Shown piece by piece: positions 1-64,000 of a stretch of DNA of 64,000 nucleotides. Within the stretch, counting starts at the first letter, position 1. Each line of letters starts with the position of its first letter. This stretch comes from Balanoglossus misakiensis. Taxonomy: Eukaryota; Animalia; Hemichordata. The translations under genes were made by a program, and so were the position numbers. The DNA is taken from contig CM082588.2 in NCBI GenBank assembly GCA_040954595.2, positions 4,900,156 through 4,964,155 of the forward strand. The letters are read 5' to 3'. The notes under the pieces are model-generated. The model did not search any database and was not told the DNA's origin. It was given only the letters and a program-made list of their open reading frames with translations.

Positions 1-1587
1 GCATGCGTCCGTGTTGTCGATGTAGGTCTCCGGTGTCCATTTTCTACGTCGCCTGTAGCGATGTAAGACGACGCCGACCACGATTAGGCTGAGAAAGAAA
101 ATTGCTAGCGACGGCAATGTCATGTAGATGATCGAAGTGTTGTCTAAGGCGGTTGACGAATCCGGCCTTGGAATTATCGCCGGCGACGTCGCCGAGTCGA
201 CGGTGAATTTAGCAGTCGTCGTGTTTTTCAAAGGCGGTGAGCTGGCGACGCTCAAAGTCCCGGCGTTCTCGTGTCTTTCAAATTTCTTCACGGTCACCTT
301 TCTCGACAATGTACTGGTCCTGACCTGATTCCGCACCGCACACGTTATCTGCATACCGTCGTTTCCCTCGTGTAAGTTCTTCACCGTGATGGTTCGGCCC
401 CGTCTCGCCACGTGATAGCAGGCGCCGGTTTCGGCTATCGGCCGTTGGTTCAGCAGCCACTGGTACTCCGATACCGGAGGGTTTGCGATGGCCGAGCATT
501 CCAGGCGGAAAGACCCGTTGACGTGTGTTTCGACGGAGACTGGGAAAATGGATATGATCGGCGGATAGTACACTCGGAACGGTCCGAGCTTGCATTGTCT
601 CTGGTCGAGGGTGGCGATGGGGCTGTGGATGACACAGGATACCACTGTCTTGTCGTCAACGGCTGATAGAGTCCAGCTATCGCGTATGTCGAACCGACCT
701 GTGTTAGGGAACAGCCGCGAGCCGTTGAACTCACCCAAGTCCGTGAACCACGAGAGGTAGTGCAGCGCCTCTGATGTGTTTTTGCCGCGGACAGAGCACG
801 TGGTTGTCAACCCATCCCCGGCCTCGTAGAACTCACGCGGCCCGCTCTCTGTCTCGCAGGAGTATCGCAGAACCGACAGCGACGCTTTCTGCGAATTCAT
901 GATCCCGTGTCCCCGCGAGAGGTAGACCATGCAGTAGTATTCGCCGCCGTCTTCGGGGGACAGGTTGCTAATCCTCAAGTCAAATTCACCGGAGGATGTT
1001 GAGCCGGTCACCGCGTAATGGTCGAGATCTTCCGCCCCGTCTGGCAATCTGTTCATCGATATGTGATGGTTTGTTGATATGACGTCGCTTCCTTTTATCC
1101 ACCGCACCACCATCTTGTCGTGCGTGAAGTTGTTGACATGGCAACGGAGCACGGCCGTTTCTCCATCCACGGTCATCACGTCTTCTGGCTGTTGGTCGAA
1201 GCTCGGGATTGGAAGCGGTAGAATGGAGAGGACGCCGGGGTTGGACTCGGCGAGCTGGCTCCCGCCGGAGCCGAATATCGCGCACGTGTACTCTCCGCCG
1301 TCACTCCATGCGACGTCGCGGATCTTCAGATCGTGCAGGCCACGTGGTTCCACGGACACTATCTCGTACTTTGGATCAGTCTCTGAATCAATCAGCGTGC
1401 CGTTGAACTTCCATCGCACCGTGTACCCAGCTCGGAGTCCGTCCACGCTGCAATACATCACACCAGTGGTTCCCTGGATGACGTCAATATTCTGAGGGTC
1501 GCCTTTGATGCGTGCATAAGAACTGGACGCCCTCGCTGCAACACCACAGAAAATCAAGAAAACCAAACGTAGCACTGATGCCGACAT
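1..1587 (-). CDS. Ig-superfamily type I membrane receptor (signal peptide, 4 Ig domains, S/T stalk, TM); C-terminus runs off the left edge; absent from ORF track
   Basis: Manual translation from ATG at 1587 is open for 529 codons to base 1: MSASVLRLVFLIFCGVAARA signal; Ig motifs MYC..VRW..DGGEYTC, LRC..VRW..DGGEYYC, TTC..LSW..VVSC, LECSAIANPPVSEYQW..ITCAVRN; TM IIYMTLPSLAIFFLSLIVVGVVL then HRYRRRRK. Aligns by eye with 3022-4980 (FDIRDSWTLSA vs FDIRDTWTLTA). Confidence 0.9.
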   Translation of the reverse strand, partial: MSASVLRLVFLIFCGVAARASSSYARIKGDPQNIDVIQGTTGVMYCSVDGLRAGYTVRWKFNGTLIDSETDPKYEIVSVEPRGLHDLKIRDVAWSDGGEYTCAIFGSGGSQLAESNPGVLSILPLPIPSFDQQPEDVMTVDGETAVLRCHVNNFTHDKMVVRWIKGSDVISTNHHISMNRLPDGAEDLDHYAVTGSTSSGEFDLRISNLSPEDGGEYYCMVYLSRGHGIMNSQKASLSVLRYSCETESGPREFYEAGDGLTTTCSVRGKNTSEALHYLSWFTDLGEFNGSRLFPNTGRFDIRDSWTLSAVDDKTVVSCVIHSPIATLDQRQCKLGPFRVYYPPIISIFPVSVETHVNGSFRLECSAIANPPVSEYQWLLNQRPIAETGACYHVARRGRTITVKNLHEGNDGMQITCAVRNQVRTSTLSRKVTVKKFERHENAGTLSVASSPPLKNTTTAKFTVDSATSPAIIPRPDSSTALDNTSIIYMTLPSLAIFFLSLIVVGVVLHRYRRRRKWTPETYIDNTDAC

Positions 1588-3021
1588 TATCCGGGACTGA
1601 TTCGCAAAAAAATGCGCAATTGTAGAAAACGATCTGCTAACGCCTCGAGATCTGGCGTTTCTATTTATATTTGTCATCCGCGGCGAGTAATCATCACGTT
1701 ATGTTTATTCACAATTTGGGGTATCTGTTTCTTGTTTTTGCATTTACATGGTGTCTATGACCGACCGTGGCTGCGTGAAGTCAACTTTTAAGGAAAGAAA
1801 AATAACAGGCAATGATTGGTTAAAGATAATGCAACGCGTCACTGGGGAAAAAATTGCCACGAACGGAAAGACTGTGATGGTGAGATTGTGTAATATGACC
1901 GAGCGTTTACCTGGTTACTCGGCGTACAGGAAACAGATTGCATGTCGAAATTCCCCCCCCCCCCCCGGCAATAAATATGCCGATGTGTGTACCTTCAATC
2001 ATAGACAGTATGTCTATGCACAGACATTGTCTGTGGTCTATGCTTCAATTCAAAAGCAATGAAACGTCACGACAGACTGAGGGTAGTGGTCAGTTTTATT
2101 TCCTTATTGCTTCTCTGTGATAAGATATATTGTATACAAGGTAATTGTACCGGCTAACTTTATCCAAAAATGAATTATTTTCACCAAACACATTATAGGT
2201 CGCATATACTCATATAGTTTGTACTAATAGTGCTATAGGACACCGCTCCGAAACTGTTTTGTCAGGAAATAGAAGTCAGTCGGGTTTCTCGACGTCACAC
2301 CGTGTACTTCCTCGTGCACTGCTCAACCCGACGCAAACAGTGACGATGACATGCCCGACCAAGTGGGCGGGGAGCATGTCCGGTAATATTACGTACGGAG
2401 TCGAACCAGCTTCATATGATCGGCGCAAGTTCTTGGAAAGGTGACAAAACGCGTCCCTATTCTGACAGTCTTCGAGTAATGTATGAGGAAATAATCTATC
2501 CAGACGCCCCCTTTCTTAGGAATTATGACGTAGATGTGTAGCGGGTACCACGGTTCACGCTGCGAACCGCTACTGGGTGATCTATAGTTTACACCCAGAC
2601 CCTCTCTTCACCACATACCTCCGTATATATGGAGCAGAACTGCGGTTGATATTCGATACCTGATGAATGGACTCTCTCGTTGTAAGCTGTTCGCCACTGG
2701 TCGCATGATTTGTGTTGGGTCCGAGCAGCCTGACCTCAGAACTTATATCGTGGGTGTCACTTTTCACGCCAAATAGGTACGCGTGACCTCATGTTAAAGA
2801 CACCAGATTCTAAAAACAGATATACACCGTAACACATCCGACGCATTGCCGGAAATTTGTGTCTCTTAAGCTTGTTACTGCATAATTATATTGAAAAATA
2901 AGCTTGCCCAAATTTAACATACATAAGAGGCTTGAGTTGGGTTCATAATAAATAAAATGTTTTGTTGGTTACAGTCAACAGTGTAAAGTCTTAATGTTGT
3001 CCCTGGGTGGCTATGACTCTT

Positions 3022-4980
3022 TCAGAGTTTAAGGTCAGCGTACGTCACAGGGGATTCTCTTCGCTTAGCCTCCCAGTTGGCCGCGGTCTCGTCGTCGTTG
3101 TCATGGTGATCTAGCTCGGCATATATTAACCCCTCCACGTTCTCTTGCCTCTTGCTTGTCTCTGCTTCACGGGGACCGGTTTCTCTGCCTGTAGTTTGGT
3201 CCCCCCGTAGCGGGACGACTTCGTACTCGGGGTTGCCGTTGCTCACTGCTTTCTTTGCCGCTCGGTCTTTGCGTTTTTTGCTTTTATCGACCTGGGCGTA
3301 CGTCACCTCGACATTGTCCTGTTTGTCGCTCTCGTTAGGCACGGGACTTTTGGAGTTTTCCGTCGCAACGGTTTGTGGTAAGCAAACCTCGTAGTCGCGA
3401 CCCTTGAGGGGAGCTCTCTGCTCGTCGACGGGGTCGTAGACATTTCCAACGTCGTCCTTTCCGTTACTAATGCTCGTCAGCGGATATGATGTATCAGGCG
3501 ATGGCTGCATGTGCGTCTGTTTTCCGTTCTTTCGTTTAAGTTTCAGGTAAAGCGTGAGAACACACAATATGATGAACATCGCTAGAATGAGACAAGAAAA
3601 TCCCACGATGACGTAAATAATTACCGGTGAAACGGCCGACTTTGCGTTGGGGCGAGGTGTGGTTTCCATGGGAACGGTAGATTCAATGACGTTCACCGTT
3701 GCTGTGGCTGACGGAAGTGTTTCACTTTCGGGTCTGCAAGTCACCTTTAATTGGGTTCTGTTTGCCGCAGGAAAGTCGACGAATTCTTCCAAGTTTATGG
3801 CCAAATGAGAACCAGAATAATTCAACTGTTTATCGTTCAGCATCCACTGCCACGGGTATTCCCCGACAGGTGGGTTGGCTCGAAGTGAACACGTGAAATT
3901 AACTGACTGATGGGCGTATGCCCGGACTGTCTGGGGATGTATGGACACTATTGGACCGAAGTGCACGTTGAGGGGACCAATCACACATTGCCGCTGATTG
4001 GAGACAGCAGCACCCTTCAATACACACGTTATATTGGCACCGTTGTCGTCAGCCGTCAATGTCCACGTGTCTCTGATATCAAAATTGTCTGGATGAACAC
4101 GCGTTCCATTTTTCTCTTCGCCATTTCGCAGCCACGACAGACGAACCGGTGCATTTCCTCCCCTCGAGATGCAATCAGTTGTCAGATTATCGCCCTCCGA
4201 ATAAGTCCCACCTTGGTTTGGATGGCACGATGGGTAGCCAATATCGGGTGGGTAGATAACATGTATCGTCGCTTCTCGTGAACTCAAAATGACCCTTTTC
4301 AATGTCTTGTGGTACACCCCACAAGAAAACATCCCAGCGTCACTTCGTCGCACGTTCAAGATTCTCAAATGAAAGGCCTGGTAGTCGTCTCCAATGACTA
4401 AGTATCGATCTTCGACCTGATCATTTCTGATCGTTTTGTCGTCAGAGATGATCTCGGTTCCCCTCAACCACTGCACCGTTGTCGTATTGGGATCCCTGTT
4501 TTCTATTCTGCACCGTAGAAGAGTATTGCTACCCTCTACGACAGTCTCGTCGTCAGGTTCACGTCGGAACACGGGAGTTGAAGCGGCAACGATGACGACA
4601 TTTGCAACTCGCGAGTAGGGTTGTGTTGGTAAAGTATTTTTGTACGCTAGGCATCGATAGGACCCTTGGTTAGTTTGACTTGCACTGATGATCGTCAAAT
4701 AACTGGTATATGTACCATTGTGTCTACCAACATTTCTTGCTTCGTTAATGTCAACGCCGTCATCATGTGCGTAAAGATAGTTTTTATCATTGAATTGCCA
4801 GTAAATCTGGTAAGTGCTGTTGTCTCCATTGATCTTGATGAACATTGAGCACTGCAGCTGAAATGACGTACCCACAACGACTTCAGTATCGGTCGGTTCC
4901 ACCACAAAGTAATGTTCCGCTGCGACTCCACGCAGCACCAGAACACACGTCAAGACCATGAAGTTGCCGACACGCGACAT
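3022..4980 (-). CDS. Single-exon 4-Ig receptor (nephrin/Kirrel/CD22-like C2 domains) with ITIM-bearing tail, about 652 aa
   Basis: ORF 3022..5160; likely start MSRVGNFMVLTCVLVLRGVAA at 4980 (signal peptide). Ig motifs NQGSYRC, DAGMFSC, CISRGGNAPVRLSW, CSLRANPP; TM VIIYVIVGFSCLILAMFIILCVLTLYL; tail VTYAQV, LIYAEL, VTYADL. Confidence 0.92.
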   Translation of the reverse strand: MSRVGNFMVLTCVLVLRGVAAEHYFVVEPTDTEVVVGTSFQLQCSMFIKINGDNSTYQIYWQFNDKNYLYAHDDGVDINEARNVGRHNGTYTSYLTIISASQTNQGSYRCLAYKNTLPTQPYSRVANVVIVAASTPVFRREPDDETVVEGSNTLLRCRIENRDPNTTTVQWLRGTEIISDDKTIRNDQVEDRYLVIGDDYQAFHLRILNVRRSDAGMFSCGVYHKTLKRVILSSREATIHVIYPPDIGYPSCHPNQGGTYSEGDNLTTDCISRGGNAPVRLSWLRNGEEKNGTRVHPDNFDIRDTWTLTADDNGANITCVLKGAAVSNQRQCVIGPLNVHFGPIVSIHPQTVRAYAHQSVNFTCSLRANPPVGEYPWQWMLNDKQLNYSGSHLAINLEEFVDFPAANRTQLKVTCRPESETLPSATATVNVIESTVPMETTPRPNAKSAVSPVIIYVIVGFSCLILAMFIILCVLTLYLKLKRKNGKQTHMQPSPDTSYPLTSISNGKDDVGNVYDPVDEQRAPLKGRDYEVCLPQTVATENSKSPVPNESDKQDNVEVTYAQVDKSKKRKDRAAKKAVSNGNPEYEVVPLRGDQTTGRETGPREAETSKRQENVEGLIYAELDHHDNDDETAANWEAKRRESPVTYADLKL

Positions 4981-6600
4981 GACTGTAACCACAGGCAAGT
5001 AAAACACTTCAGAACGGTGGCGCGGCTGTGTCTCCGCCACTGCTGGTTTCCGTACTGCTTGACTTCCGCCTTCGTTGACAAAGTGCGTAGTAAAGTTCTT
5101 CTGTTCGCAGAATTGATTACAGCAGGCGTATAGTTGGACATGCGCAGTATACTGTAACATCGCGTCACAGTGCCGTATTTAGATACGTACGTGTGCCGAC
5201 CTGTGAGGAATGTGACCACTGCCACGGGCGGCCGCGACCTTGGTCTGGCACGATGAACAAGTCATTTTGACATCTCCATTGTATAGCCTCCGTAACGTAA
5301 TCTTTAGACTGTGAATCAACTACAATTTTGTTGTACTTCTTACAGCATGTTACAACGTCCAGTAGAACTACATGTACTTGACAATACAGTATGCGTATTT
5401 GTAACAATCATGTGTTCCCGGTAACTCGACTATAAGGAGTAATGTCACAAAGTCCAATTTGAGTACTGGGTGAAAAATTAAAAAAAACTTCCGATGTGGC
5501 CTTACTGAAGGGAATGTCACAGGAAACACGTTATTTTCTATTTTTGGCCGGCCACACACCGAATGTAGTTTGGCGATGTCATTGGCGAAAAGGCAAGAAT
5601 TTCTCTGCCCCGTGCGATTCCACTACACTCCAGCATATGATTCAGACATCTCGTGTGAACATGGATGAAACTATTGTTTCGTTCGCGGTCAGAAACGTAT
5701 CTTGAAAAGTGAACGCCTGGTGGCGACAGACATTACCCAGCAGTACCACTCGGACAATGCATTGTCATCAGTGCGCCCTCAATCTAGTCTGGTCACCGAT
5801 CTACTTTGCTACGTCACTTGGCACCCTGAACCAATACTCCGCGGCAACTTTTATCACTGTTGTTGGAAGTCGCGTGATATTGTGAATCCGACATGTATGT
5901 ATGTATGCAGTGTTAAACACAGAAAATAACAAATACCAACATTTGGAAAACGACTGGTCTAATACACCTCGTGACACTGGTTCATAAGCACTTGAAATAC
6001 AAATGTCATGTTTATCTTCAACAAATCGACATTTTAAAAACCATTGGTGAAACTATTTTCACTCTTCGGATTTTTAGTATTCTTACAAAGGAGAATCCTA
6101 AAGTCCATAGTGTTTAAAAGAAATAACAATTATACATTTTCAACTCCTTACTGTTACACCCAAGACTAGTTTCAAAGTCCCATAGACTTACGGTAAATGA
6201 GTTATGTAAAGGAAGTTAGTCATAAAAATGAACACTATTGCGCGAAATATGTCAAAATGTGTTGCTATTGGCAATTTAAGATGAGTTCCTTATCGAGCTG
6301 ATGTCGATGAAACGCGATGACGCACACAGTGTTCCGTATTTCGATATGTAACAAAATACATCTGAGTACTATACGCGCATTTTTTACATTCAACGTGTCG
6401 TATAGATGTCTGAATAATATAACAGGAAATGGTTTAAATAAACTGTAATAACGATTGCTGTCTATACACTGGTCATTTTCTGGTTGCCTATAAATTCCTG
6501 GTTATCACTGAGTGTGGGATCAGTTAATCACAATTTTGGTACAAGTCTAAAATCGACAGGTTGTTGTAGTTATAGTTATACAGGTGAACATTTTTCAGTT

Positions 6601-7455
6601 TTAAGGTGGTGTTTCCAAGCTCTTGACTTTGACCTCGGCGTATACCACGGGTGCCTCTTTCCGATGCACTTTCACGCCGTCATCACCTCTGGCACGATCA
6701 TGGACCTGTAGATCGGCATAAACCAATCTCTCTACGTTCTTGCGTAGCTTGCTTTCCGGTGTTTCATTAAGGTCACTGTCGTCAGTTTTATCGTTGCCCT
6801 GCGCAGCTTCTTCATCTCTGTTGCGGGCAGCGGCGTTTTCGCACTCATCCCGGCCAATCTCCTCCCGTTTGAAGCTGACCTCACTGTACATCACGGGTGC
6901 CTCTCGTCGGCGCACTTGACCGTCACTGTCTCCCTTTCCATGAATCTCCAGATCTACATAGACCAATCGCTCCACGTTCTTGCGTAGATTACTGTCCCGT
7001 GTGTCACCAAGGCCCTTGTCTGTTTTACCACTGTCTTGTGCAGCCGCGTTATTTTTCTCGGGGGCGGCGTTTTCGCAACCTTCAAACCCGCTCCTCGTCT
7101 CCTTGGTTCCCGAGACAGCCCTGTCTGTGGGCCCGGGCTCGACGTTGCCCTTTCCATATCCCCCTGGCTGGCGCGGATGCGTTTTAGTATCAACATTTGG
7201 TCGTTCGCAGACGTCCTCGCGATTGATACTCGGGGAAGCGCTTTGCTCAGTTTCCACTCCCGGACCGGCAATGGTACCACCCGCGTCCCCTGCTGGTGGC
7301 GTCGACAGCGATGGAGTCCCAGCGGGCAACTTCTCCCTGGTCACCCGCTTTCCACATTTCCCCTTCTTTATGCAACATAAAGCGATGCCCATCGTGATGA
7401 CCGTGACGAGCAACAGACAGAAGACTCCGATGAGAATGACAATCATGGCCGACAT
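6601..7455 (-). CDS. Ectodomain-less transmembrane adaptor-like protein with four ITIM-like motifs (about 284 aa)
   Basis: ATG at 7455 is followed directly by hydrophobic MIVILIGVFCLLLVTVITMGIALCC then IKKGKCGKR; in-frame TAA at 7483-7485 upstream; tail LVYVDL, VMYSEV, LVYADL, VVYAEV, homologous to the tail of 3022-4980. Confidence 0.8.
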   Translation of the reverse strand: MSAMIVILIGVFCLLLVTVITMGIALCCIKKGKCGKRVTREKLPAGTPSLSTPPAGDAGGTIAGPGVETEQSASPSINREDVCERPNVDTKTHPRQPGGYGKGNVEPGPTDRAVSGTKETRSGFEGCENAAPEKNNAAAQDSGKTDKGLGDTRDSNLRKNVERLVYVDLEIHGKGDSDGQVRRREAPVMYSEVSFKREEIGRDECENAAARNRDEEAAQGNDKTDDSDLNETPESKLRKNVERLVYADLQVHDRARGDDGVKVHRKEAPVVYAEVKVKSLETPP

Positions 7456-8989: not shown

Positions 8990-9380
8990 TTTGTTGTTCG
9001 TTTTGTGCCAATGGCCGCACACGCTTTGCTCAACTTGCCTGTTCACGTAGCTCTAAATTCACAAATGCAACTTGCGACTCGCAGTGTTTCCGTTAGCGTA
9101 TTACACGCATATTTCTACTTGTGGGCTCAAAATTTGTTTGCGTAGGAGAAAGTGTTATCTGAATTCAAAATTAAAATCGAACGCGTAAGAGAGGGTTCGT
9201 TGTTGTTCGTTTTGTGCCATTGGCCGCACACGCTTTCTTCAACTTTGCTTCACTGGAAAATATCAAGTTCAAAACGTGCCCGTTTTATATATCTCTAAAT
9301 TCATAAATCAAACTTGTGACTTCTAGTGTTTCCGTTAGCATAAAGAAACTTGCGTACTTCACTCAAAATTCTCACCGTTC
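8990..9380. repeat. Degenerate ~210-bp direct duplication
   Basis: ttgttgttcgttttgtgcca(a/t)tggccgcacacgcttt at ~8991 and ~9200; ctctaaattca..aacttg..gtgtttccgttagc in both copies. Confidence 0.75.
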
Positions 9381-10850: not shown

Positions 10851-11024
10851 ATCTGTGGCTGTAGCGAGGTTGTCTGGATAACCATATGAAGTAACAGTCT
10901 TGGTGTATGGTCTTATATTGGGCCATCCCCAGAGGTCGGGTGTACTGATCTCTGTGGCTGTTGCGAGGGTTGTCTGGATAGCTAAATGAAGTAAAAGTGG
11001 TCTTATATTGGACCAACCCCAGAT
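10851..11024. repeat. ~100-bp direct duplication
   Basis: tctgtggctgt(a/t)gcgagg..ttgtctggata..atgaagtaa..ggtcttatattgg..cccaga occurs twice. Confidence 0.75.
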
Positions 11025-14470: not shown

Positions 14471-14612
14471 ACTTAGAAAATTTTCAGGCTTTACTCTATA
14501 CTTTGACATTAAAAAAAACTTATACATTTTTCAGAATTTACTCTATACTTTCATTCAAAAAAAAGCTTAGAATATTTTTCAGAATTTACTCTATACCTGC
14601 ATTAAAAAAAAA

Positions 14613-20600: not shown

Positions 20601-21101
20601 AAAGTTTGCAAAGTCAAGATTTTGTCATCTTTCGACAATTTTCATGAGCTATAACCCATGAATAATGTCCAACAATGACAAAATCACCAAAGTTTGCAAA
20701 GTCAAGATTTTGTCATCTTTCGACAATTTTCATGAGCTATAACCCATGAAAAATGTCCCAACATGACAAAATCACCAAAGTTTGCAAAGTCAAGATTTTG
20801 TCATCTGTTGACAATTTTCACGAGCTATAACCCATGAAAAATCTCCCAACATGACAAAATCACCAAAGTTTGCAAAGTCAAGATTTTGTCATCTTTCGAC
20901 AATTTTCACGAGCTATAACCCATGAAAAATCTCCCAACAATGACAAAATCACCAAAGTTTGCAAAGTCAAGATTTTGTCATCTGTTGACAATTTTCACGA
21001 GCTATAACCCATGAAAAATGTTATAAAATGACAAAATCACCAAAGTTTGAAAAGTCAAGAATTTGTCATTTTTTTTAATTCTCATGAAAAATGTCCAACA
21101 T
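14613..21101. repeat. Satellite array, 88-bp palindromic monomer, about 73 copies
   Basis: Monomer catgacaaaatcaccaaagtttgcaaagtcaagattttgtcatctttcgacaattttcatgagctataacccatgaaaaatgtcccaa; period 88 (for example 15568 to 15656). Confidence 0.97.
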
Positions 21102-26670: not shown

Positions 26671-26703
26671 TTAAATGAGTTCTTTCTGCATTTTACACCA
26701 TTT

Positions 26704-26761
<58 letters not shown>

Positions 26762-49566: not shown

Positions 49567-51756
49567 TTAAGCCGGATATTTTCCGCCCTTTCTCGGTTTG
49601 TCTGGTTTTGCATACATTTCATCGAGTGTTTTGTTTGCTGTTGGCCCGCTGCTATCCGTGGCATACGCATGTGCAGTGACTTTTCCAGGCCGTTGAGCAC
49701 CTCTTGTAGTCTCGCGACTGTTCACCCCTTTCGATTGTCCACCTTCTTCGTTCGTCTCGCTGGCATTGTCCACATTTGGCCTTCCGACCTTTTCATCTCC
49801 ATGTCGTTGTCGTGAATCAACCATAGCCCTTCCATCAAACGTCTCGTATTCCTCACCTGCGCGGTAGGATGGGTTGAAAATAGCGGTGCCGTCAGCACTT
49901 TCGTAGGCTATGTTCTCCCGCGAGTACAAAGCAAGGTCATCAACACTTTCATACGCTATATTCTCTGTAGAATACGCGCTTGGGTCAGCCTCGGGTGTTT
50001 TGCTTTTGATTGCCGTACTCTCTGTATCAGTGACAGTTTCAGGTCGTTGGTGATCTACATTCCCCTGGTCACTGAGCTCTGACAATTGTTCGCCCTCATA
50101 ATTTATTATGTTGGCTTCGTCTGCGTTTTGATTTGAGGCAAATTCTTCCCCTTTCCCTTGATCTCCTGAACGTGAACTCACCACAACTTCCCTACTGAAC
50201 GCCTCGTATTCATTACCTACATGGCTTGCACCTACTGAAGTCCCATATGCACCTTCGTAGGCTATGTTCTCACGAGAATACAAGACATGGCCATCGGCGC
50301 TTTCTTGCGGCAAATTCGCTCCAGAATCCGCGTTTTGGTCCGATTGGCTCGGAGTTGCCATGATGTTTACTTGGATATGTTGGTTCAGTACAACTTCAGT
50401 ATTTCCTCGTGGGGTTTTTCTCTGTCTAGATTTTAGGATGCAGACGACCAAAATTGTGACGATCAACAGAATTAAAAGACCAAGTCCACCAGCGGCTGAG
50501 GCAATGATCAGTGTATTATTATCATTAGTCATCGAATTTCCGCCCATGGTCACAGTTGTTTCAGTGTGGTCATTTCTATTCCCCGTCACATGCTGCAGTG
50601 TAGTGTGCTTAATTGAGACCATGGAAGAATCTTTGTATGCTGACCAATCAGTTGATATTGGCAATTTTGTTGTAGTTGGTGTTGATTTTGAGTGTGGTGT
50701 TGCTATGTTGACCAACAAAAACCCCGATGCAGTTCTGGAACTGAAACCGTAATCCACAACACACTTAACAGTAACATTGTATTGGCATGCTGTGTTTTCG
50801 TCCATGCAGGTGAAATCACTGAACTGTAAGGAGGAATTGTTTGTCATATATTGAACTTGAAAATTCTCAGCGTTGTCTATTTCCCATCGATAAACAGTGA
50901 CCCCGTACTCTCTAGAACTTTGGCAAGATACAGTCACCACAAGGCCGTGGAAATTTATTTCAGTTACTTCCGGGTAGATCTTTACAGTAGGGTCGTCATA
51001 CACAGTAATGGGTCCCAATGTACAGAATTTGTTATCTTGTCCCGACTGTGACAGACGACAACTATACTCTGTCCCATTTTCTTCAACTGACAAATCCAAT
51101 ATATAGTCATGAATTGGATACACGTCAAAACTGAGGCCAGGTTGAACCCAGGTGCTCAGTGTTGTATCGTTGTTTCGCGTCCAAAATAACAGGACAGCTG
51201 GTTTTCCGGGATCAGACCGACACCTCAATGTAACGCTGTCTCCTTTGAAGTATTCATGTGCGTTACCGTGGAAACGTATTCCATTCACAGTGTGGTCACA
51301 AATAGGGTATTGTTGTCTTGGAATGACTCTGGTGTTAACAACTACCTCAGTTGATTCAATAACAGCACTATTGCCCGTCATTACCTTACACTGATAGCGA
51401 CCACTGTCTTTATACGCCTGCAGGGCTGAGAACGGCTGTATTTGCAGATTGTATGTGCCCACAATGCGGTATCGTATATGGTCAATCAACTCAGCTACTG
51501 ATTCGTCAGTACTTATTCTGCCATTTTCACTTATTGGCAAATTGTTCTTAAACCACGACACCTTCTGACCCGCCTCTAAGTTACTCACTTCGCATCGCAG
51601 GTAGATAGAGGAAGTTGACTCGGATCCATAGACCAGCGTTGTAGTAGAGCTGCTGGGCTGCACATCAAAAGTTGGAGTTGACTTGACAGACCCCAGTATC
51701 ATACCGCAGTACAAATACCTGATCCATGTATGGACGCTAGTGTGTCTAGGATGCAT
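49567..51756 (-). CDS. Single-exon 3-Ig receptor with a long tail carrying repeated YSxENIAYE motifs, about 729 aa
   Basis: ORF 49567..51894; start MHPRHTSVHTWIRYLYCGMILGSV shared with paralog; Ig motifs YLRC..VSW..DSGRYQC, LRCRSDPGKP..W..YSC, VSC..YRW..VKC; TM IIASAAGGLGLLILLIVTILVVCIL. Confidence 0.9.
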   Translation of the reverse strand: MHPRHTSVHTWIRYLYCGMILGSVKSTPTFDVQPSSSTTTLVYGSESTSSIYLRCEVSNLEAGQKVSWFKNNLPISENGRISTDESVAELIDHIRYRIVGTYNLQIQPFSALQAYKDSGRYQCKVMTGNSAVIESTEVVVNTRVIPRQQYPICDHTVNGIRFHGNAHEYFKGDSVTLRCRSDPGKPAVLLFWTRNNDTTLSTWVQPGLSFDVYPIHDYILDLSVEENGTEYSCRLSQSGQDNKFCTLGPITVYDDPTVKIYPEVTEINFHGLVVTVSCQSSREYGVTVYRWEIDNAENFQVQYMTNNSSLQFSDFTCMDENTACQYNVTVKCVVDYGFSSRTASGFLLVNIATPHSKSTPTTTKLPISTDWSAYKDSSMVSIKHTTLQHVTGNRNDHTETTVTMGGNSMTNDNNTLIIASAAGGLGLLILLIVTILVVCILKSRQRKTPRGNTEVVLNQHIQVNIMATPSQSDQNADSGANLPQESADGHVLYSRENIAYEGAYGTSVGASHVGNEYEAFSREVVVSSRSGDQGKGEEFASNQNADEANIINYEGEQLSELSDQGNVDHQRPETVTDTESTAIKSKTPEADPSAYSTENIAYESVDDLALYSRENIAYESADGTAIFNPSYRAGEEYETFDGRAMVDSRQRHGDEKVGRPNVDNASETNEEGGQSKGVNSRETTRGAQRPGKVTAHAYATDSSGPTANKTLDEMYAKPDKPRKGGKYPA

Positions 51757-51866
51757 TCTGCAGTGTATAATCTCCTCTGTGTATGAGCCAACACCGTGAA
51801 AGTTCCAGAACATGGCATATACGTGTTGATGGTGCCAAATACCTGGTAGCTTCGGGTTTATGAGGT

Positions 51867-51880
51867 CACTTTTACTTCCG
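51867..51880 (-). promoter_or_regulatory. ETS site / ETS-IRF composite-like motif CGGAAGTAAAAGTG just 5' of a putative 5'-UTR intron (51842-51758); identical copy near 54214-54226
   Basis: Motif and cag|gtattt..ctgcag|aATG arrangement conserved in both duplicated receptors; one mismatch from GGAAnnGAAA. Confidence 0.35.
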
Positions 51881-52409
51881 TGAACCGGGTACACAATAGT
51901 CTATTAAAGGTCACAAAACCATAGATATGTAGATTGGAGTTATTCAACTCTCACGGCAAACTTTATTGTTTGAAAGCGAGTCGCTAAAAATAACAGCATA
52001 CCAGTTACACGCGACCAATTGAATTGTTGGCTGATAGTTGGTAACTTTCACCATTGCCTGTCAATTTTGGTAAGTGGTCAACGCAAGGGTTCGTCAGATT
52101 TCATCAGCTGTTGTTGTATGATTGACAGTAACCTTCTTGCATGTCCCGGTCGGTCGGATGGATTAAAAGATGAGCTTTTCGCTTCCTTCCTTTGTCATGA
52201 TCGCACAGTGAATTCAGTGAATAACTAAAACTAGTGCATATGCGGTGTAGCTGTTCAAATCCGCAGTGCAATTTGAAGATCAGAAATCTCTAGGATAATA
52301 TTAAAACAGAGAAAATCTATCACAACAAAATCTAGCCCGATTTTGGATATTAATCTGCAAAACTCTATAATATTTTCATTCGGGCCTACACAGTTTCCTG
52401 CTTAAATCA

Positions 52410-54104
52410 TTATTTCCCACCATCCTCCCGATTCAAATGCGCATACTCAGTGTTTTCCTCAGATCGCTTTATATTCAAATTAGTGTATCCGTCCTCGCCA
52501 ATCATGTGTTGGTCTGTGTCCGAATTTTGGCCGCCGGCCTGACCCAGGTGAGCGTATGTTGATTGAAGACTTTCTTCCGGATGTTTGGCAGTCAAATTAG
52601 CGTAACCATCCTCTCCTATAATGTTCTGTACCACTGTTACATTTTTGTCATGTACCTGACTTAAGTGGGTGTACTCAGACTCGGTTTCTTCAGGTCGTCT
52701 CAAGGTCAAATTAGTATATCCATCCTGGTCAGTCATTTCTTGGTCAACTTCTTCTTGTTTGTGTTCGTGTTTTCGTTTTCTTATTCTGACGATGTACACG
52801 ACAAGTATAATTACAAGTGTAATGGCAAGGAGAAAACCTATGACGACAGCAACAACTGTCACTGTGTTTGAAAAGCTGGGGTTGTTGCCAAATTGGCCAG
52901 ACTTCAGGGTGGATGACGTAATTGGGCTGGGCGATTGTTGCTTATCCATCGTCCGCTCAGGCTGTGGTCCCTGTGGAATACTGAGCGATGGCCGTATATT
53001 AACCGTCGACGTTGGCAACGTTGATGTAGTTGGTGCTGATGTTGACTGTGATGATATGTTGACAAACAAAAACCCATATGCAGCTCTGGAACTGAAACCA
53101 TAATCCACAACACACTTGACAGTAATATTGTATTGGCACCTTATATCGGCCCTGCAAGTGAAATCACTGATCTGTAGGGTTTTATTATTTGTCAGATATT
53201 TAACTTGAAAATTCTCAGCGTTGTCTATTTCCCATCGATAAACAGTGACCCCGTGGTCTCTAGAACTTTGGCAAGATATAGTCACCACAAGGTCGTGGGA
53301 ATTTATTTCAGTTACTTCCGGGTGGATATTTACAGTGGGGTCGTCATACACAGTAATTGGTCCCAATGAACAGAATTTGTCATCTTGCCCTGACTGTGAA
53401 AGACGACAACCAAACTCTGTTCCATTTTCTTCAACTGACAAATCCAGTGTGTAGTTATGAGTTGGATACACGTCAAAATTGTTGCCAGGTTGAAACCAGT
53501 AGCTCAGTGTGGTATCGTTGTTTCGCGTCCAAAATAACACGACAGTTGGTTTTCCTGGGTCAGACAGACACCTCAGTGTAACGTTGTCTCCTTTGAAGTA
53601 TTCATGCATGTTTCCGTGGTAAAGCATTCCATTTACAACTTGGTCACAAATAGGATATCGTTGTCTTGGAATGACTCTGATGTTAACAACTGCCTCAACT
53701 GATTCAATAACAGCACTATTGCCCGTCATTACCTTACACTGATAGCGACCACTGTCTTTATACGCCTGCAGGGCAGAGAACGGTCGTATTTGTAGATTGT
53801 AAGCTCCTTCAATGCTGTATCGAGTATGGTCAATCAACTCAGCTACTGATTCGTCAGTACTTATTCTGCCATCTTCACTTATTGGCAAATTGTTTTTAAA
53901 CCATGACACCTTCTGACCTGCCTCCAAGTTACTCACTATACATCGCAGGTAGATAGAGGAAGCTGACTCTGATCCATAAACCAACTCTGCAGACCAGCTG
54001 TTCGGCTGATGCACAAAAGTTGGCATTGAGTTGACAGACCCCAGTATCATACCGCAGTACAAATACCTGATCCAAGTGTGGACGCTAGTGTGTCTAGGAT
54101 GCAT
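52410..54104 (-). CDS. Single-exon 3-Ig receptor with three ITAM-like units, about 564 aa
   Basis: ORF 52410..54185; ectodomain nearly identical to 49567-51756; TM VTVVAVVIGFLLAITLVIILVVYIV; tail YTNL-x11-YTHL, YANL-x12-YAHL, YTNL-x10-YAHL. Confidence 0.92.
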   Translation of the reverse strand: MHPRHTSVHTWIRYLYCGMILGSVNSMPTFVHQPNSWSAELVYGSESASSIYLRCIVSNLEAGQKVSWFKNNLPISEDGRISTDESVAELIDHTRYSIEGAYNLQIRPFSALQAYKDSGRYQCKVMTGNSAVIESVEAVVNIRVIPRQRYPICDQVVNGMLYHGNMHEYFKGDNVTLRCLSDPGKPTVVLFWTRNNDTTLSYWFQPGNNFDVYPTHNYTLDLSVEENGTEFGCRLSQSGQDDKFCSLGPITVYDDPTVNIHPEVTEINSHDLVVTISCQSSRDHGVTVYRWEIDNAENFQVKYLTNNKTLQISDFTCRADIRCQYNITVKCVVDYGFSSRAAYGFLFVNISSQSTSAPTTSTLPTSTVNIRPSLSIPQGPQPERTMDKQQSPSPITSSTLKSGQFGNNPSFSNTVTVVAVVIGFLLAITLVIILVVYIVRIRKRKHEHKQEEVDQEMTDQDGYTNLTLRRPEETESEYTHLSQVHDKNVTVVQNIIGEDGYANLTAKHPEESLQSTYAHLGQAGGQNSDTDQHMIGEDGYTNLNIKRSEENTEYAHLNREDGGK

Positions 54105-54933
54105 TCTGCAGTGTATAATCTCCTCTGCGTAAGTGCCAACACGACAGAGTTCTTGAATATGGAATATACGTGTTGATGGTGCCAAATACCTGATAGCTTC
54201 GGGTTTATGAGGTCACTTTTACTTCCGTGAGGTTACCACACAATGGACATGTAAATAGTTTTCAACTGTACACTCAAGTCAAACTTTGCTGGTTGAAAAC
54301 GCGTGGCTAATAAATAACAGCAAGCTGGGCCAGTACAAATAAAATTGCCAAGGACATTTTAAAAGTTGCAGATCCAGATTGGCGACATCGACGCCGAAAA
54401 TGGTCGAATATTTGAAGACATCTGGCGCATGGTCTTTGTAGATGAAGACCGGTTGTGTAAACAGTCATCTACCACTTCTCCCATCAGGCAATTTTACTGC
54501 TAAAATGCCATTTATATACATGGGCTTATATGATGGCAGGGTGGGCGTCCCTCACCTGATCATGCGGTACATGATCAGATGATCAGTGCATCATCACACC
54601 AGCCAGATCGCAGACGTGGCGGAAGTCTCTCCTTAAACCAGTGAAATAAGGTGAGAAGTTAGATTTACCAGTTTCCTGGGATTAAAGGACTTAATTTAGA
54701 TTGCAAAGACGGACGAAAATTGGCCAATTTGTGCGAGTCCACTGGGCGTGCCAGCCACTTCTTTTCCCATCCCATCAAATTCACATATGGTTTAAGAGTA
54801 GTGATGTCTTTGAAGCCGGAAACATGCAGTGTAGACATCTCTTCGTCGTTTCTAGAAACTGTTTCATTTACTGAGACAATAGTGCAAAGATCTTTTTGTC
54901 TTCTCCAGCAAGTGTTTTTGTTTGACTGGAGCA

Positions 54934-57900: not shown

Positions 57901-58958
57901 CTTTGGGGTTAAATGTCTTTCTAAATAAACACAGGCTTATAAAAACACAAAATGCCAGCCATATGTTTCACTAGGCAAATGCGTTATTTCGGAACTGAGT
58001 TTATTTTTGTAAACAATCTCCAAACCCCAGCTCAAAAATAGGAAATGTTTGATGATTCCATATATAATTTCACTCTTATTCTCGCTTCTGTAAAAAAAAA
58101 CAGCACGTGTCACCCTCCCTCTAGGAGAAGTTTGTAAAATTTGACCCCCTCCCCAATTCACCCAGCCTACTCGCTCGTTATAAATAAAAGCTTCCCAGGG
58201 TATACATTTGATCATGCCCAACACTCTTGCTCCATCAGGTGGAGAACTGGAGTGGTTGGGCATCGTTCTTACATCGATCAGCAAATTGTCTATCTCCTGT
58301 GCATTTAACATCGTATATATCTACTCTGGCGAACTATTCCCGACACCTGTCAGGTAAGAAGGGTAATGTGGTGGCTATTTAATGAAACTAATAATGGCAA
58401 AATTACGCCGGGGTCATCGAGCCAACAGGAAACATTAACAGATAATATATTAGTCTAATAATCTTTTTTTATAAATGATTAGCTTTTCATGTAAAAAAAA
58501 TCGGTGCTTATGATGCATGGCACACATAACTGTTTTTCTACACGATTTTCAGATCAACTGGTATCGGTGTGTGTTCAACATCCGCACGCATTGGAGGGAT
58601 TTTGGCACCGCAGTTCCTGTTAATGGCCGATGTCTGGGCAAAACTACCACCTCTCGTCTTTGGGGGCGCTGCCGTTATCGCGGGAGTCGCCAGCCTCCCC
58701 CTCCCAGAGACTCGGGGCGCTTACCTGCCTGAAACCATGGAGGAAGGGGAGAAATTTGGCAGGTGCGTCTCTCTCTCTCTCTCTCGCCCTCTATCTATCT
58801 CTCCCCACTCTCTCCACCATGTTGTTTGTTTGTTTGTTTGCTTGTCCAATACAGTTATTATTGTAAATGACCACGTTTACATTTGTGTTATTCACAGGAA
58901 ACCCAAGCGACAAAAGTTAAAAACAACAATGGTCGATACTCAATCGGGGGATTTATAA
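54934..58958 (+). CDS. SLC22 organic ion transporter paralog A, 575 aa; exons 54934-55371, 55803-55906, 56124-56278, 56478-56646, 56977-57136, 57378-57472, 57664-57884, 58239-58353, 58553-58762, 58898-58958
   Basis: FDDVLKHLLGEFGKYQ; CDHGWEYD..STVAQQFDLVC; SDRFGRK; PESPRWL; ELFPTPVR; LPETRG..LPET; phases consistent (1728 nt). Confidence 0.93.
55920..56024. repeat. Compound (GAT)n(GAG)n microsatellite in SLC22-A intron 2
   Basis: Directly visible trinucleotide runs. Confidence 0.95.
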
Positions 58959-59600
58959 CTCAGCCAGCGTTGCTGCTACGCCGGCCAATGGGACGAATTT
59001 GTGCTGAAGATCTTCTCAACTAACGCTTGTTGTGATACACTGAATAAGGAGCTGGCTTGGTGCCTTGGTGAAAATGACATCGCTCAACAATGAATAAATA
59101 GAGTGCACACTCAAAAATATAAAAAGGAGTCATTCCTGACATTTATGGGCTAACAACGTAAATTAAATACATGTGGTGTTGCATCTGTCCAGGTTCAGTT
59201 TCTATGGCTCTTATTCATTCTCGAAGAATGCAGTTTGGAAAGGTTTTCATATTTTTGTTACAGGACATTTAGTTTAATGGAAAACGGTATGAAAATTTGA
59301 CACCATTGTTGCTTGTTGGAAAAGATACTTTTGGCCTTTTTTCTCATCCCCTTTTCGTGTTTTATGACAGAACCGGTTTGTACCGGTATTTAAACATGTT
59401 TTACAAGGCACCCTGAGTCTATTTTTATTATTGATCTATATATAATTTATTTTAACTTTTTAAAGAGAATGTTCATGCGAATAGTTTCATCTATTCACTG
59501 ACATATAGTAGGGGTATTAACTTCTGTTCACCTTCTTTCTGGCGATTTCAATACAGCAGATTTATACCCTAATTCAAACTTTCTAGTTACAATACAAGCA

Positions 59601-62600
59601 ATGCTGCACTTTGACCAGGTGTTAATGAACAATGTTGGCGAATTCGGCAAGTACCAAGTAACGGTTTTCATCCTACTCGGCATCGCGGCCTCGCTGCTAT
59701 CACAGCAGCCGTTGACACCTCTGTTCATGTTGGCGGAAACCGATGCCTGGTGCAGCCTTCCCGGCGGGGAAGAGCTGCGCGATGAGGTCTGCAGGGGAAA
59801 CGGCACCGCCGAGTGCGTTCAGATGGTGAAACGCCTGGCCATCCCGACAGAGCAAGTAGATGTCGGATGCGGCGTGGCTGCAAGGTTCAGTCAGTGCCAC
59901 AGATACAACATCACCGGGGACGATATCGTGTACGCGCTGGCAAATGGCGTCACTTCTCATGCCAATATCTCAACGATAGCATGCGACAGTGGATGGGAGT
60001 ATGACAGGTCACAGTACAAATCTACGGTTAACCAACAGGTATGCTAATTACAATATTCCTAGTATGAAGCAAGATCAGTAAGTATGACTGTTAGACACTG
60101 ATAAGTTGATAACCAAAGACCCAACACAACACATTGAATGAAACAGTCCCCTACTCCACATGGGATTAATATAATTTTACACCGGCGTATAATATCCATA
60201 GAAAGACGGTAAAAAATCAGTCGCTGTTTTAAAAGAAGACTATCATAGGGACATTTTTGCTTTATTATTCAGTTTGATCTGGTATGCGACAAAAAATATC
60301 TGGTGCAATTTCCAAACACGATGTTTTGGGCTGGAGTTTTTGTTGGGGCATGTGTCATAGGAGTAATCTCGGACAGGTAATAGTTAAACGTTCTTTCATG
60401 ATGCACCATTTAAGCCTTATTTTGCAAAGTGCTCGTTTTTCAGCAGAATATTAGAATTGCAGGTTTATTGCAGTAATTTTAACTTCTTTCAGATTTGGAC
60501 GGAAACGTGCTTTCTTCATAGCGATGACGCTTTCCACCGCCTTTGGAATAATGTCCGCCTTTTCACCAAACTACCTTTTCTTCGCAATTGCTCGTTTCTG
60601 TACCGGGGCGTTTGGATTTTGTGGCTACGTGGCGTCGTTTATTATGGGTAAGGTAAATTGTATTGATTGTTTTAATTTAATTCTAACGTGGTCGTTGAAA
60701 CTCTACGGCAAACTTTCGTCAATGCCTTTCTCCCTGCATGTACCAAAACAACGAAAATACGACTGAAATACGTTCCCTGTGGTTATTCCAGCTACAGAAT
60801 TTGTTGGACCGTCCAAACGACACACAGCTGGGTTGGTCTACCCAATGTTTTTCTCGGCCTCTTTCATGATTTTGTCCCTGGAAGCCTACTTCATCCGGGA
60901 ATGGTGGATCCTAGAGCTGGTTGCTTCCCTTCCAGTTCTCTTGCTATTCCCCTATTGGTGGTAAGTATGTGTGTATACATTATACATACATGCATGCATG
61001 CGTACATGCGTGCGTACGTATGTGCGTGTATCTGTTTCAAGACCAAGTGTACAATCATTTAGGAACAAAAGTTCATAGTCCGTTTTGTATGACTGATAAT
61101 AGGATCATTCCCGAGTCTCCGAGATGGCTGTTGTCCAAAGGGAGGAAGGAAGAGGCAGAGAAGATAATCCGACGATGTTGTCGCATCAATGGAAGACCTG
61201 TTCCCGATAACGTGTTCAGCGACTCGCTGAACCCGGATAAAGCTTCTGAAGTCGAACCCATGGTAAAAAGCACTTCAAAAATTCACCACAATATTTAATA
61301 AGTTTTCCTTGTATGTTTTCTGCATGTTATCAGTTGGCAAGGACTAATGACCATGATACTGCTGTATAGTATTAACAAAATGGTTCATCATCTTGTCCAA
61401 CAAGACAATTTCTCTGACAAGTTCCTAATGTAACCCATGCTATGTTTGAATCCAAGATAAGACACCGTCAGCTTTCGTTCGCAGGAGAAAAGACAGCGCA
61501 ATAAAATGTTCCACGAAATAATGGACCTTCTCCGGCTGCCGAACATGAGAAAGAAGACGCTGATTGCGTGCTTCTACTGGTAAGTATGTCTATCATCGAA
61601 CCAGCACAGCTCTCCTGTTGTTACCAATGAACAGTTTTCTGCCCAGTGTTAAACGTTATTTTGTTGTCACTGGGAATTTCAAAGACTGACTGAAATAGCA
61701 GTTTCAGAGCAAATACATTTGTAATTGCAAGTGAAGGTTTACAACTTCCTAATTTTTACCAATTCTGACTATTTTTACAACTTAATTTTCTTTACGCCAG
61801 TTTTCTTTCACTGAAAATTAACGTCCTCCTTTCTACAGGAGCGTGGTATCCTTGGTGTACTACGGGCTCACGTACAATACATCCAATCTCGGTGGCAGTG
61901 ATTACATCAATTGCTTTCTATCCGGAGTGGTCGAAATTCCGGTTTACATTTTCGCTATATGTATTATGGACTGCCGAAGAATTGGGCGGCGATGGTCCAT
62001 CTTCTGTGTGACGATGATTAGCGCCCTCACGTGTGTTGGCTCTGCTTTCTTTCCTCCATGTAGGTTTGTGAGAATCAATATGGTGAAATAAAACGTCATG
62101 CTCCATGTCCAGGTTTCTTTTTTATAGAAATCAAGAAATTTTCAACAAATATTGAATGTTTGGAGGCTGAATTAAGTCACGACTTTTACTTGGAGCAGAA
62201 CCCTCATCATGTAACTTTATATATAAAGGAGAGGTAATGCCCGCAACTAAACCAGGATGGTTTCATTTTTAGGTGGAAAACTGGTGTGGGTTGGTATTAC
62301 GCTTTCTATCGCAAGCAAGGCTTTCATATCCGGGGCATTCAGCATGATTTATGTCTTCACGAGTGAGCTGTTCCCGACATCTGTCAGGTAAGGAATTAGA
62401 GTCAGGTTCATTGTGCAAGGGTTTACCCTCAGCTAGACTCAGCTATGTTATCTGGTGGGGTTAAATAAAAAACTAGAACTAAGTCCAGGAATTTACTGCG
62501 TAACGCGTGATTTCACTTCACAGGTCAACTGGGGTTAGTCTATGTGCAATGTGTTGTCGAATTGGAGGCATGTTGGCTCCACAGTTCCTATCGATGGCCG

Positions 62601-63006
62601 ATGTCTGGGCGCAGCTGCCCGCTGTCGTGTTTGGGGGCGCTTCTGTTCTAGCTGGAGTCGCAATTCTCTTTCTACCCGAGACCCGGGGGAAATGTTTGCC
62701 CGAAACTATGGACGAGGCGGAACAATTCGGCAAGTATGTATTCGTGCTGTCGGGTGCAGCAATGTATTTTAATGATAAAACAAAGCACGGAAAGAAATGC
62801 TTCGATCCATGCGAAGGAATGGTGGTTTGATCACCGTATACATTTGTAAGCTCTGTTTATCATAGATTAATCTCATGTATTTCCTATTTGTTTAATTACC
62901 TATCTTTTTCTTGTTTAGGAAACCACTGAAGCCTAACCACATGGACTATTGTGGCGGAAAGATAAGAATGGTTGAAATGGAGGAAGCACCCATTGTATCC
63001 ATTTAG
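59601..63006 (+). CDS. SLC22 organic ion transporter paralog B, 584 aa; exons 59601-60038, 60273-60376, 60493-60647, 60792-60960, 61103-61262, 61485-61579, 61839-62059, 62273-62387, 62524-62733, 62919-63006
   Basis: Same motifs as paralog A and identical sizes for the first nine exons (438,104,155,169,160,95,221,115,210); 1755 nt. Confidence 0.93.
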
Positions 63007-63421
63007 CTGTTGCTTGCATTTCAGCAAGACGTTTAGTTATTACGAAGTTGCCGTGGTGATGGATATTCCAATTGCAAACTAACTACAATTCGCAAACCCA
63101 TTCTGATCTTGCCCGTGTTAACTCCTATGTTAAACCTCGGGAAATAATCTTATACTGATGTTTGTCTGTCTGAGACCTGATTAGATTTGGTGAGCGTAGC
63201 TTGCATATTTATGATATAATAAAACATAACGTAAAATTGTAATTCTCAATACATTGTTCTCGCATTAGTACTTGTTGGACACAGAATATTTATGTATTAA
63301 AAATCCCGTATTCGTTTGAAATGTACTTCGTTTGTTATACTGGAGGCAATAATAAAGTCAGTCAGCAGCCATTAAAAAGTTCAACCAAATTTCGCAATAA
63401 CTGTAGGTTTTATATTTTCTT

Positions 63422-64000
63422 CTATCTTTGCAATGAAGTGTATTGATCTTCCTCTCGGGAATGTAAGTCTAACTTTTGATAATTTTCATGCTCGCTGGTT
63501 CCGCCTGAATTGGGGTTTTCATATGCACCATCTACGCTGTCTGGTATGTTAACCATTTGGAGATGTGAAGTATTCGCACCTTGAGGACACTTGTCCTGAC
63601 ATTCTTCGTAGTTGCTGTTAGCATGTGACGATGTGCCATCTGCACGCCTCTTTCTAATGATTATAAAGAGCCAACCGAACAATAGTGTCAGTAGTGACCC
63701 GAATACAAATGATCCCACTATGCCTCCGACCATCTGTGCTGTACTGTACGATGTGGAACATTTCCCCTGTACACACGGCAGACATTGTTCATTTAGATCG
63801 GTCGTTATGTGGCTTGTAACACTCTCCGCCCGTGTACCTGAAATTGTTGTTGTAGTGTCGTCTGTGGAATCTGTGGGTAGTACCAATTCTATGACACTTG
63901 TAGCAATACCTATACCGATCCCATTATCAGCAATGCACATGATTTCATGGTTCATTCCTTCACTGATGTCAAACCCCATAATCTCCAGAGTCATGTTATT
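63422..64000 (-). CDS. 3' part of an Ig-superfamily receptor with a C-terminal ITAM-like motif; N-terminus beyond the right edge
   Basis: Frame open to base 64000; Ig F/G strands HEIMCIADNGIG; T-rich stalk; TM MVGGIVGSFVFGSLLTLLFGWLFIII then RKRR; tail AYENP and ENYQKL-x9-YTSL. Confidence 0.8.
   Translation of the reverse strand, partial: NNMTLEIMGFDISEGMNHEIMCIADNGIGIGIATSVIELVLPTDSTDDTTTTISGTRAESVTSHITTDLNEQCLPCVQGKCSTSYSTAQMVGGIVGSFVFGSLLTLLFGWLFIIIRKRRADGTSSHANSNYEECQDKCPQGANTSHLQMVNIPDSVDGAYENPNSGGTSEHENYQKLDLHSREEDQYTSLQR

Follow-up and report, generated by a model that had tools for sequence, protein, structure and literature searches.

The 64,000-nucleotide window analysed here, from the acorn worm Balanoglossus misakiensis (assembly GCA_040954595.2, contig CM082588.2, positions 4,900,156 to 4,964,155), carries six genes, g1 to g6, of an immunoglobulin (Ig) family whose members differ in their cytoplasmic tails (Table 1). 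In six-frame translation they appear as six stop-free frames on the minus strand, with a single coding exon for each visible gene, and they lie in the three groups (1–7455, 49567–54104 and 63422 to the edge) in which a first-pass annotation of this DNA had placed them. The frames of g2, g4 and g5 run without interruption from a leader through Ig domains, a stalk, a transmembrane (TM) segment and a tail to the stop codon. The g1 frame is likewise uninterrupted as far as the window edge, which truncates its tail after 21 residues and leaves the tail class unreadable. Pfam reports Ig domains for four of the frames (g1, g2, g4 and g5) but not for g3 or g6; g6 is assigned to the family by the family profile (E = 9e-7).

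The Ig domains are arranged as V-C2-I or V-V-C2-I, with the signature CxxGPxxV and with canonical cysteines that are invariant in 21 of 21 aligned rows. The four peptides quoted at first pass as a signature common to the visible ectodomains all translate exactly from the minus strand. In the AlphaFold model of g5, an N-terminal helix is followed by three beta-sandwich domains (predicted local distance difference test mostly >90) and, past a disordered stalk, by a single membrane helix that leads into a disordered tail. The leader of g4 and g5 is only weakly hydrophobic, which makes their start positions uncertain. Candidate splice acceptors directly ahead of the ATGs suggest that the receptor genes have introns in their 5′ untranslated regions.

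Table 1. Coordinates of the receptor-family genes and their features in the window (Tyr, position of the tyrosine codon; aa, amino acids; ITIM, immunoreceptor tyrosine-based inhibitory motif).
Feature	Position	Strand	Description
g1	1..1587	-	Signal peptide, four Ig domains, stalk, TM (~64-120)
g1 family signature	541..603	-	CxxGPxxV, end of C2-like domain; from translation
g2	3022..4980	-	652-aa single-frame receptor, four Ig domains, TM (~3556-3612), tail with 3 ITIMs (Tyr 3300, 3123, 3042)
g2 family signature	3934..3996	-	From translation
g2 tandem-ITIM cassette	3025..3150	-	Also in Ptychodera, Saccoglossus, Antedon and Patiria proteins
g3	6601..7455	-	284 aa, N-terminal TM, Cys-Cys pair, basic stop-transfer residues, 4 ITIMs (Tyr 6960, 6888, 6720, 6642); no ectodomain detected in window
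g3 internal duplication of ITIM cassette	6630..7077	-	6630-6843 vs 6876-7077, 69% DNA identity
g4	49567..51756	-	Three Ig domains, stalk, TM (~50434-50490), 288-aa tail; start codon uncertain
g4 tail motifs	within 49567..51756	-	Three YSxENIAYE repeats, one NPxY (Tyr 49866), two YxxF, one YxxP
g4 side of shared g4/g5 block	50658..51998	-	Ends just past last Ig domain; 85.5% DNA identity, 1347 columns
g4 family signature	50971..51033	-	From translation
g5	52410..54104	-	Three Ig domains, stalk, TM (~52800-52856)
g5 tail motifs	within 52410..54104	-	Three DGYxNL-x10-12-YxHL units (Tyr 52718/52673, 52604/52556, 52487/52445)
g5 side of shared g4/g5 block	53012..54322	-	85.5% DNA identity
g5 family signature	53319..53381	-	From translation
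g6	63422..64000	-	End of last Ig domain, stalk, TM (~63656-63712), tail with YEN and YxxL-x9-YxxL pair (Tyr 63481, 63442); 5′ part beyond window

Tyrosine motifs and exchange of tails

Motif counts were compared with 20,000 shuffles of each tail; internal repeats inflate the counts in g3, g4 and g5, where motif copies are not independent. The g2 tail contains three ITIMs (P = 0.0006), all with alanine at the position after the phosphotyrosine (pY+1), a residue linked to SHP1 docking (PMC8631942; papers are cited by PubMed Central number). The four ITIMs of g3 were reached in 0 of 20,000 shuffles, and the same holds for each of three counts in g5, namely six YxxL motifs, three pairs spaced 10–12 and three DGYxxL motifs. 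All six tyrosines of the g5 tail lie within YxxL, and its three pairs, spaced 11, 12 and 10, each begin with DGYxNL. DGYxxL is the consensus of the hemITAM, the hemi- form of the immunoreceptor tyrosine-based activation motif (PMC3819593), for which PMC12582321 requires three acidic residues; g5 fits DGYxxL three times, with two of these three residues. The g6 tail has one YxxL pair at a spacing of 9 (P = 0.003), and the enriched class in the g4 tail, which has 14 tyrosines, is NxxY (four copies, P = 0.011).

The DNA likeness between g4 and g5 begins about 240 bases upstream of the ATG and ends shortly past the last Ig domain (50658/53012). The ectodomains are 81% identical over 325 codons, with a synonymous divergence (dS) of 0.23 and a nonsynonymous to synonymous ratio (dN/dS) of 0.47 (0.36, 0.46 and 0.67 by domain). 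The two tails are unrelated, their alignment score falling below that of shuffles (z = -1.3). A similarity between the stalk and TM regions (z = 6.8) was discounted, as shuffling disrupts the hydrophobic run. The tails are modular: everything past the ectodomain is replaced between g4 and g5. Either a duplicated ectodomain acquired a new tail or conversion homogenised the two ectodomains, histories that would be indistinguishable here. The same pattern of like ectodomains on unlike signalling parts is described for paired opposing receptors (PMC3210942).

The g3 frame encodes, in order, a membrane segment, two cysteines, basic residues and a tail homologous to that of g2 in which the ITIM cassette is duplicated, and we regard its product as a candidate inhibitory transmembrane adaptor. 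Because the tail is homologous to that of g2, g3 arose within the receptor family. No Ig remnant was detected upstream, either by the family profile in all six frames or by Pfam in 48 upstream minus-strand frames; a weak phase-1 acceptor 23 bases before the ATG would permit an unseen upstream coding exon. The duplicate copies of the cassette differ at 55% of silent sites and 24% of replacement sites (pS 0.55, pN 0.24; Fisher P = 0.0007). Relatives of g3 were absent among 1523 candidates of 156–497 aa. Feature-based look-alikes are the vertebrate proteins C1orf162, LST1, SIT1 and SCIMP, with scores of 0.80–0.85 that serve as leads only. LST1, SIT1 and SCIMP (0.80–0.83) share with g3 an N-terminal membrane anchor, the apparent lack of an ectodomain, juxtamembrane cysteines and tyrosine motifs, whereas g3 differs from them in the homology of its tail to that of a receptor.

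Relatives in hemichordates and echinoderms

A full HMMER scan with g5 returned 193 proteins at E <=0.001, and the counts given here cover the 150 matches listed, 90 of which contain CxxGPxxV. Thirty proteins were looked up by name, and most listed matches are thus without a species label. The named set comprises 14 proteins from Ptychodera flava, two each from Saccoglossus and Antedon, one each from Anneissia, Patiria, Asterias, Amphiura and Holothuria, two nephrins (amphioxus and horseshoe crab) and five unnamed proteins. One of the 14 P. flava proteins is hemicentin-like; of the 13 counted as members, 8 lie on one 44.3-Mb contig. Judged from these matches, the family is common to hemichordates (including Saccoglossus) and four echinoderm classes, so that the independent expansion proposed at first pass is not a private one. 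The closest relatives are from P. flava: word-indexed matches for g2 were limited to three proteins of this species, of 43–47% identity (3 of 5371 candidates). The word-indexed database, when searched with a profile, yielded only three distant proteins (PTK7-like, NCAM and an Ig light chain) among 7994 scored candidates, an uninformative outcome.

Trees of the V and C2 domains were built from 148 rows (8 of 156 proteins were dropped for partial coverage) and from a hand-chosen 41 of the 148. They place g1 and g2 with one P. flava set and g4 and g5 with another (weak support), the nephrins standing apart. The approximately unbiased (AU) test, applied here to quick trees and to groups named after the tree was viewed, rejected the four window ectodomains as one clade (p 0.002), so the local cluster would appear to mix old subfamilies. 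In a profile-profile comparison the alignment built round the window genes joined a clade that contains the Amphiura member (probability 99.8). The nephrin-named rows (~1190–1320 aa) form their own starred clade (support 99), and the signature occurs in 0 of 6 nephrin-clade rows; one-to-one orthology with nephrin, raised at first pass as an alternative, is not what the trees recover. For Kirrel/SYG-1 and nectin/CADM, sequence matches in the PDB are weak (best E 3e-12) and the tree holds no verified Kirrel, nectin or CADM sequence; the many-to-one expansion argues against one-to-one orthology with these proteins. Rows with five Ig domains, first taken for Kirrel, proved to be named hemicentin-like or uncharacterised, with the signature in three of six, and were dropped as an outgroup.

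The g2 tail aligns with those of P. flava P0005 (z 28), Saccoglossus P0052 (z 5.6) and g3 (z 7.1), with 0 of 500 shuffles reaching the score in each case. The cassette N[VA]EGLxYA[ED]L, with a second ITIM-type motif 20–27 residues further on, is shared by g2, P0005, P0052, the crinoid protein P0145 and the sea star protein P0099, and a variant form occurs twice in g3. The hemichordate-echinoderm split is more than 500 million years old. Conservation of the tyrosine motifs, on which the first-pass annotation had staked its reading, thus holds for the ITIM cassette, which is kept across species. A single ectodomain clade for the seven tandem-ITIM carriers is rejected (AU test, p 1e-5).

The ectodomains of three P. 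flava proteins, P0005, P0006 and P0007, group in one starred clade, sister to the ITIM-bearing g2; a grouping of g2 with P0005 is rejected (AU test, p 0.019). The P0005 tail is ITIM-type like that of g2, the P0006 tail contains 13 YxN motifs, and the P0007 tail has 17 residues and no tyrosine, although P0007 may be an imperfect gene model. P0005 and P0006 are 47% identical. The simplest reading of these sequences would be an ITIM-bearing ancestor with derived tails; an inhibitory ancestor with derived activating forms is described for KIR and Ly49 (PMC2213150). P0026 and P0005 have accession numbers three apart and lie on the same contig. P0026, a short-tailed protein, is like g1 in its length and in the place of its TM segment (29% identity). 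Together these features hint that the g1-g2 gene order is conserved and that the g1 tail is short.

Other tail types recur among the relatives. In the 31-row clade with the Amphiura member, two tail tyrosines are invariant at ~30% identity in 28 aligned rows, and both lie in YxxL/I in 18 of the 28, a motif rate inflated by the choice of these 28 of 31 rows for their visible tails. P. flava P0015 carries YxxL-x7-YxxL and P0044 carries YxxL-x10-YxxL. A second recurrent type, YFEP followed mostly by YxE[IV], occurs in P0016, P0017, P0018, P0030, P0050, P0119, P0133 and P0140, a subfamily that includes Antedon and Holothuria. The signature domain is also found in long repeats, in P0008 (3688 aa, 17 matching stretches) and P0009 (1513 aa, 7). 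P0072, P0063 and P0060 are full leader-to-tail proteins on ENA contigs of 11–63 kb, and members of the echinoderm type may also be single-exon.

Candidate opposing immune receptors

An immune role for this family is likely on sequence grounds, and we lean toward reading the window genes as a tandemly duplicated, single-coding-exon Ig family whose members oppose one another on innate immune cells, some as brakes and others as accelerators. Binding of a ligand to the V domains would cluster a receptor, and a Src- or Syk-type kinase would phosphorylate its tail. Established partners are the tandem SH2 domains of SHP phosphatases for ITIM pairs, Syk for ITAM and hemITAM, Grb2 for YxN and PTB domains for NPxY. 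The paired ITIMs of g2 and g3 would recruit an SHP-type phosphatase. ITAM-like, hemITAM-like and YxN motifs would bring Syk or Grb2 to g6 and probably to g5, and the partners of g4, with its NxxY/NPxY and YxxF, would be PTB-domain or endocytic adaptors. As a membrane adaptor, g3 would lend ITIMs to the receptors it partners. Duplication of the ectodomain with replacement or amplification of the tail, all within one exon, would give rise to new receptors. Such wiring is plausible in invertebrates: in human cells an amphioxus ITIM receptor recruits SHIP1 and SHP1/2 (PMC8211107), and in an oyster an Ig receptor bearing an ITAM is active in haemocytes (PMC11999971). More tentatively, the family may constitute an ancient hemichordate-echinoderm paired immune-receptor system, with tail-swapping single-exon Ig genes, a brake cassette conserved since the split, echinoderm ITAM-like expansions and the independently evolved g3 adaptor.

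Several observations weigh against opposing receptors. A strict ITAM with x6-8 spacing is absent from all tails in the window, and the x6-9 definition of PMC9546547 is satisfied there by g6 only, not by g5. The second half-motifs of the g5 units also match ITIM (two) or immunoreceptor tyrosine-based switch motif (one) patterns, so g5 could be inhibitory or mixed and its signalling polarity is ambiguous. Of the tail codes proposed at first pass, the ITIMs of g2 and g3 stand above shuffles, but the ITAM-like pairs of g5 and g6 are non-canonical; the three YSxENIAYE repeats of g4 are genuine, but the one ITIM match in this gene is at chance level (P = 0.23) and its tail has no ITIM or ITAM excess. 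None of the six TM segments in the window shows a charged residue. That one Ig family carries different tyrosine tails bears out part of the paired-receptor proposal, but the sole near-identical ectodomain pair, g4/g5, does not set ITIM against ITAM, the g4 tail not being ITIM-type. A ligand shared by the ITIM-bearing g2 and g5 is unlikely because their ectodomains are only ~24% identical, and the g4/g5 ectodomains are under purifying rather than positive selection. Most relatives carry neither an ITIM nor an ITAM tail class (the labels on 148 rows are 71 'other', 27 ITAM-like, 7 tandem-ITIM, 4 YxN, 16 short and 23 without a TM segment), only 7 of the 28 aligned rows of the Amphiura-containing clade meet the x6-9 rule, and the P0015 gene model lacks a TM segment. 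The post hoc groups and quick trees of the AU tests count on the same side, as does the identity of the nearest solved structures, which are neural adhesion Ig proteins (13–19% identity).

These structures bear on a different function, a cell-recognition or adhesion code in neurons, epithelia or development, like that of nectin/CADM, DIP and SYG, in which the tails would route adhesion signals via SHP2, Grb2 and endocytosis. We judge it unlikely, if a serious competitor. The V-C2-I layout fits it, as do the best PDB matches (DIP, Robo, nectin/Necl, SYG and IgLON) and the short or tyrosine-free tails of many P. flava members, and SHP2 often promotes Ras signalling. Nephrin, Kirrel/SYG and nectin/CADM likewise combine V, C2-set_2 and I-type Ig domains and are the source of the NCBI automatic names 'cell adhesion molecule-like' and 'kin of IRRE-like'. 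At their level of identity, however, the structure matches are unspecific, and nephrin forms a separate clade; compared with nephrin, the acorn worm family has fewer domains, variable tails and a signature with an extra cysteine pair that is missing from 6 of 6 nephrin-clade rows. Lineage-specific duplication combined with tail replacement and ITAM-like pairs is, moreover, more typical of immune receptor families (PMC3210942, PMC2213150).

Returning to opposing receptors, their variety of tails could also have a more trivial origin, if the ITIM type alone were functional, the other tails were by-products of birth-and-death turnover and short-repeat slippage, and g3 were a decaying copy without its ectodomain. 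The tails of g4, g5 and P0006 are indeed made of short internal repeats with no homologue detected elsewhere, and g3 is without a relative among the candidates of its size range. This account is nonetheless improbable, since every frame is open, selection on the g4/g5 ectodomains is purifying and each g5 tail tyrosine sits in YxxL; the excess of silent over replacement differences between the g3 repeat copies also speaks against decay, though it possibly predates the loss of the ectodomain. Acorn worms, like most echinoderms, live singly and without fusing, a habit that fits poorly with allorecognition. Receptors for allorecognition or gamete recognition, analogous to Botryllus FcoR or Hydractinia Alr, would follow the precedent of both known invertebrate loci, which hold Ig families with ITIM and ITAM or hemITAM tails (PMC12582321, PMC9546547), but such a role is very improbable here, with neither the Sushi domain of FcoR nor an Fn3-like domain reported by Pfam in the window genes and no fester-like partner gene seen nearby in the window.

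Genomic surroundings and known receptor systems

The genes between the first two receptor groups are spliced and encode a PMP22/claudin-like protein, a GNAT acetyltransferase, a class I (tryptophanyl/tyrosyl) tRNA synthetase and OSCP1; located at 22737–43166, they are useful synteny markers. Just upstream of g3 lies an 88-bp satellite (14613–21073, ~73 copies, 93% matches), preceded by AT-rich arrays of 47–48 bp (13052–14613). Between g5 and g6, at 54883–62827 on the plus strand, are two tandem spliced genes with exons 68–74% identical, which from their motifs we take to be relatives of SLC22 organic cation transporters; Pfam gave no match on four of their single exons.

Among known systems, Botryllus FcoR is also an invertebrate deuterostome multigene Ig family of type I membrane proteins in genomic clusters, with ITIM, hemITAM and other tyrosine tails (PMC12582321, PMC12065747). 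FcoR differs in its Sushi domain (V-Sushi-C2-C2), its multi-exon genes, the swapping of its motifs through alleles and splicing, and its pairing with a fester-family gene, whereas the acorn worm family has a V-C2-I or V-V-C2-I layout in a single coding exon, without a Sushi match in Pfam or a visible fester-type partner. Hydractinia Alr is similarly a clustered Ig family with tails more divergent than the ectodomains, with ITAMs in some members and ITIMs in others (PMC9546547). Its I-set domains, however, lack paired cysteines and are followed by an Fn3-like fold, and its role in allorecognition has been shown genetically, while the acorn worm family has invariant canonical cysteines and no Fn3 match in Pfam.

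Vertebrate paired receptors (KIR, Ly49, PIR, KLRC; PMC2213150, PMC3210942) also place near-identical ectodomains on different signalling parts, as in g4/g5, and have a likely inhibitory ancestor with derived tails (PMC2213150), as g2 and P0005 may be to P0006 and P0007. In KIR, activation depends on a charged TM residue and an adaptor, whereas the acorn worm motifs lie in the receptor's own tail, with no charged TM residue visible. The near-identical g4/g5 pair does not oppose ITIM to an activating tail. The likeness to the vertebrate receptors is one of pattern.

Invertebrate Ig families with ITIM and ITAM tails are thus already known from Botryllus and Hydractinia, and the hemichordate-echinoderm family is apparently undescribed: no hemichordate, echinoderm or ambulacrarian equivalent was found in the literature searched, mostly at the level of titles and the starts of abstracts and with few subscription papers among it. 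PMC11599192 reports no CD28-family gene in Saccoglossus. Vertebrates, a tunicate and a cnidarian are known to balance ITIM and ITAM, and the family described here names candidates in hemichordates and echinoderms, the sister group of the chordates. Coelomocytes are accessible in sea stars, brittle stars and sea cucumbers, so a pre-chordate origin of on/off immune receptor logic becomes directly testable. If the reading as opposing receptors is true, the exchange of tails within a single exon, together with the conversion of a receptor tail into a stand-alone adaptor, would be a route to paired receptors that does without exon shuffling.

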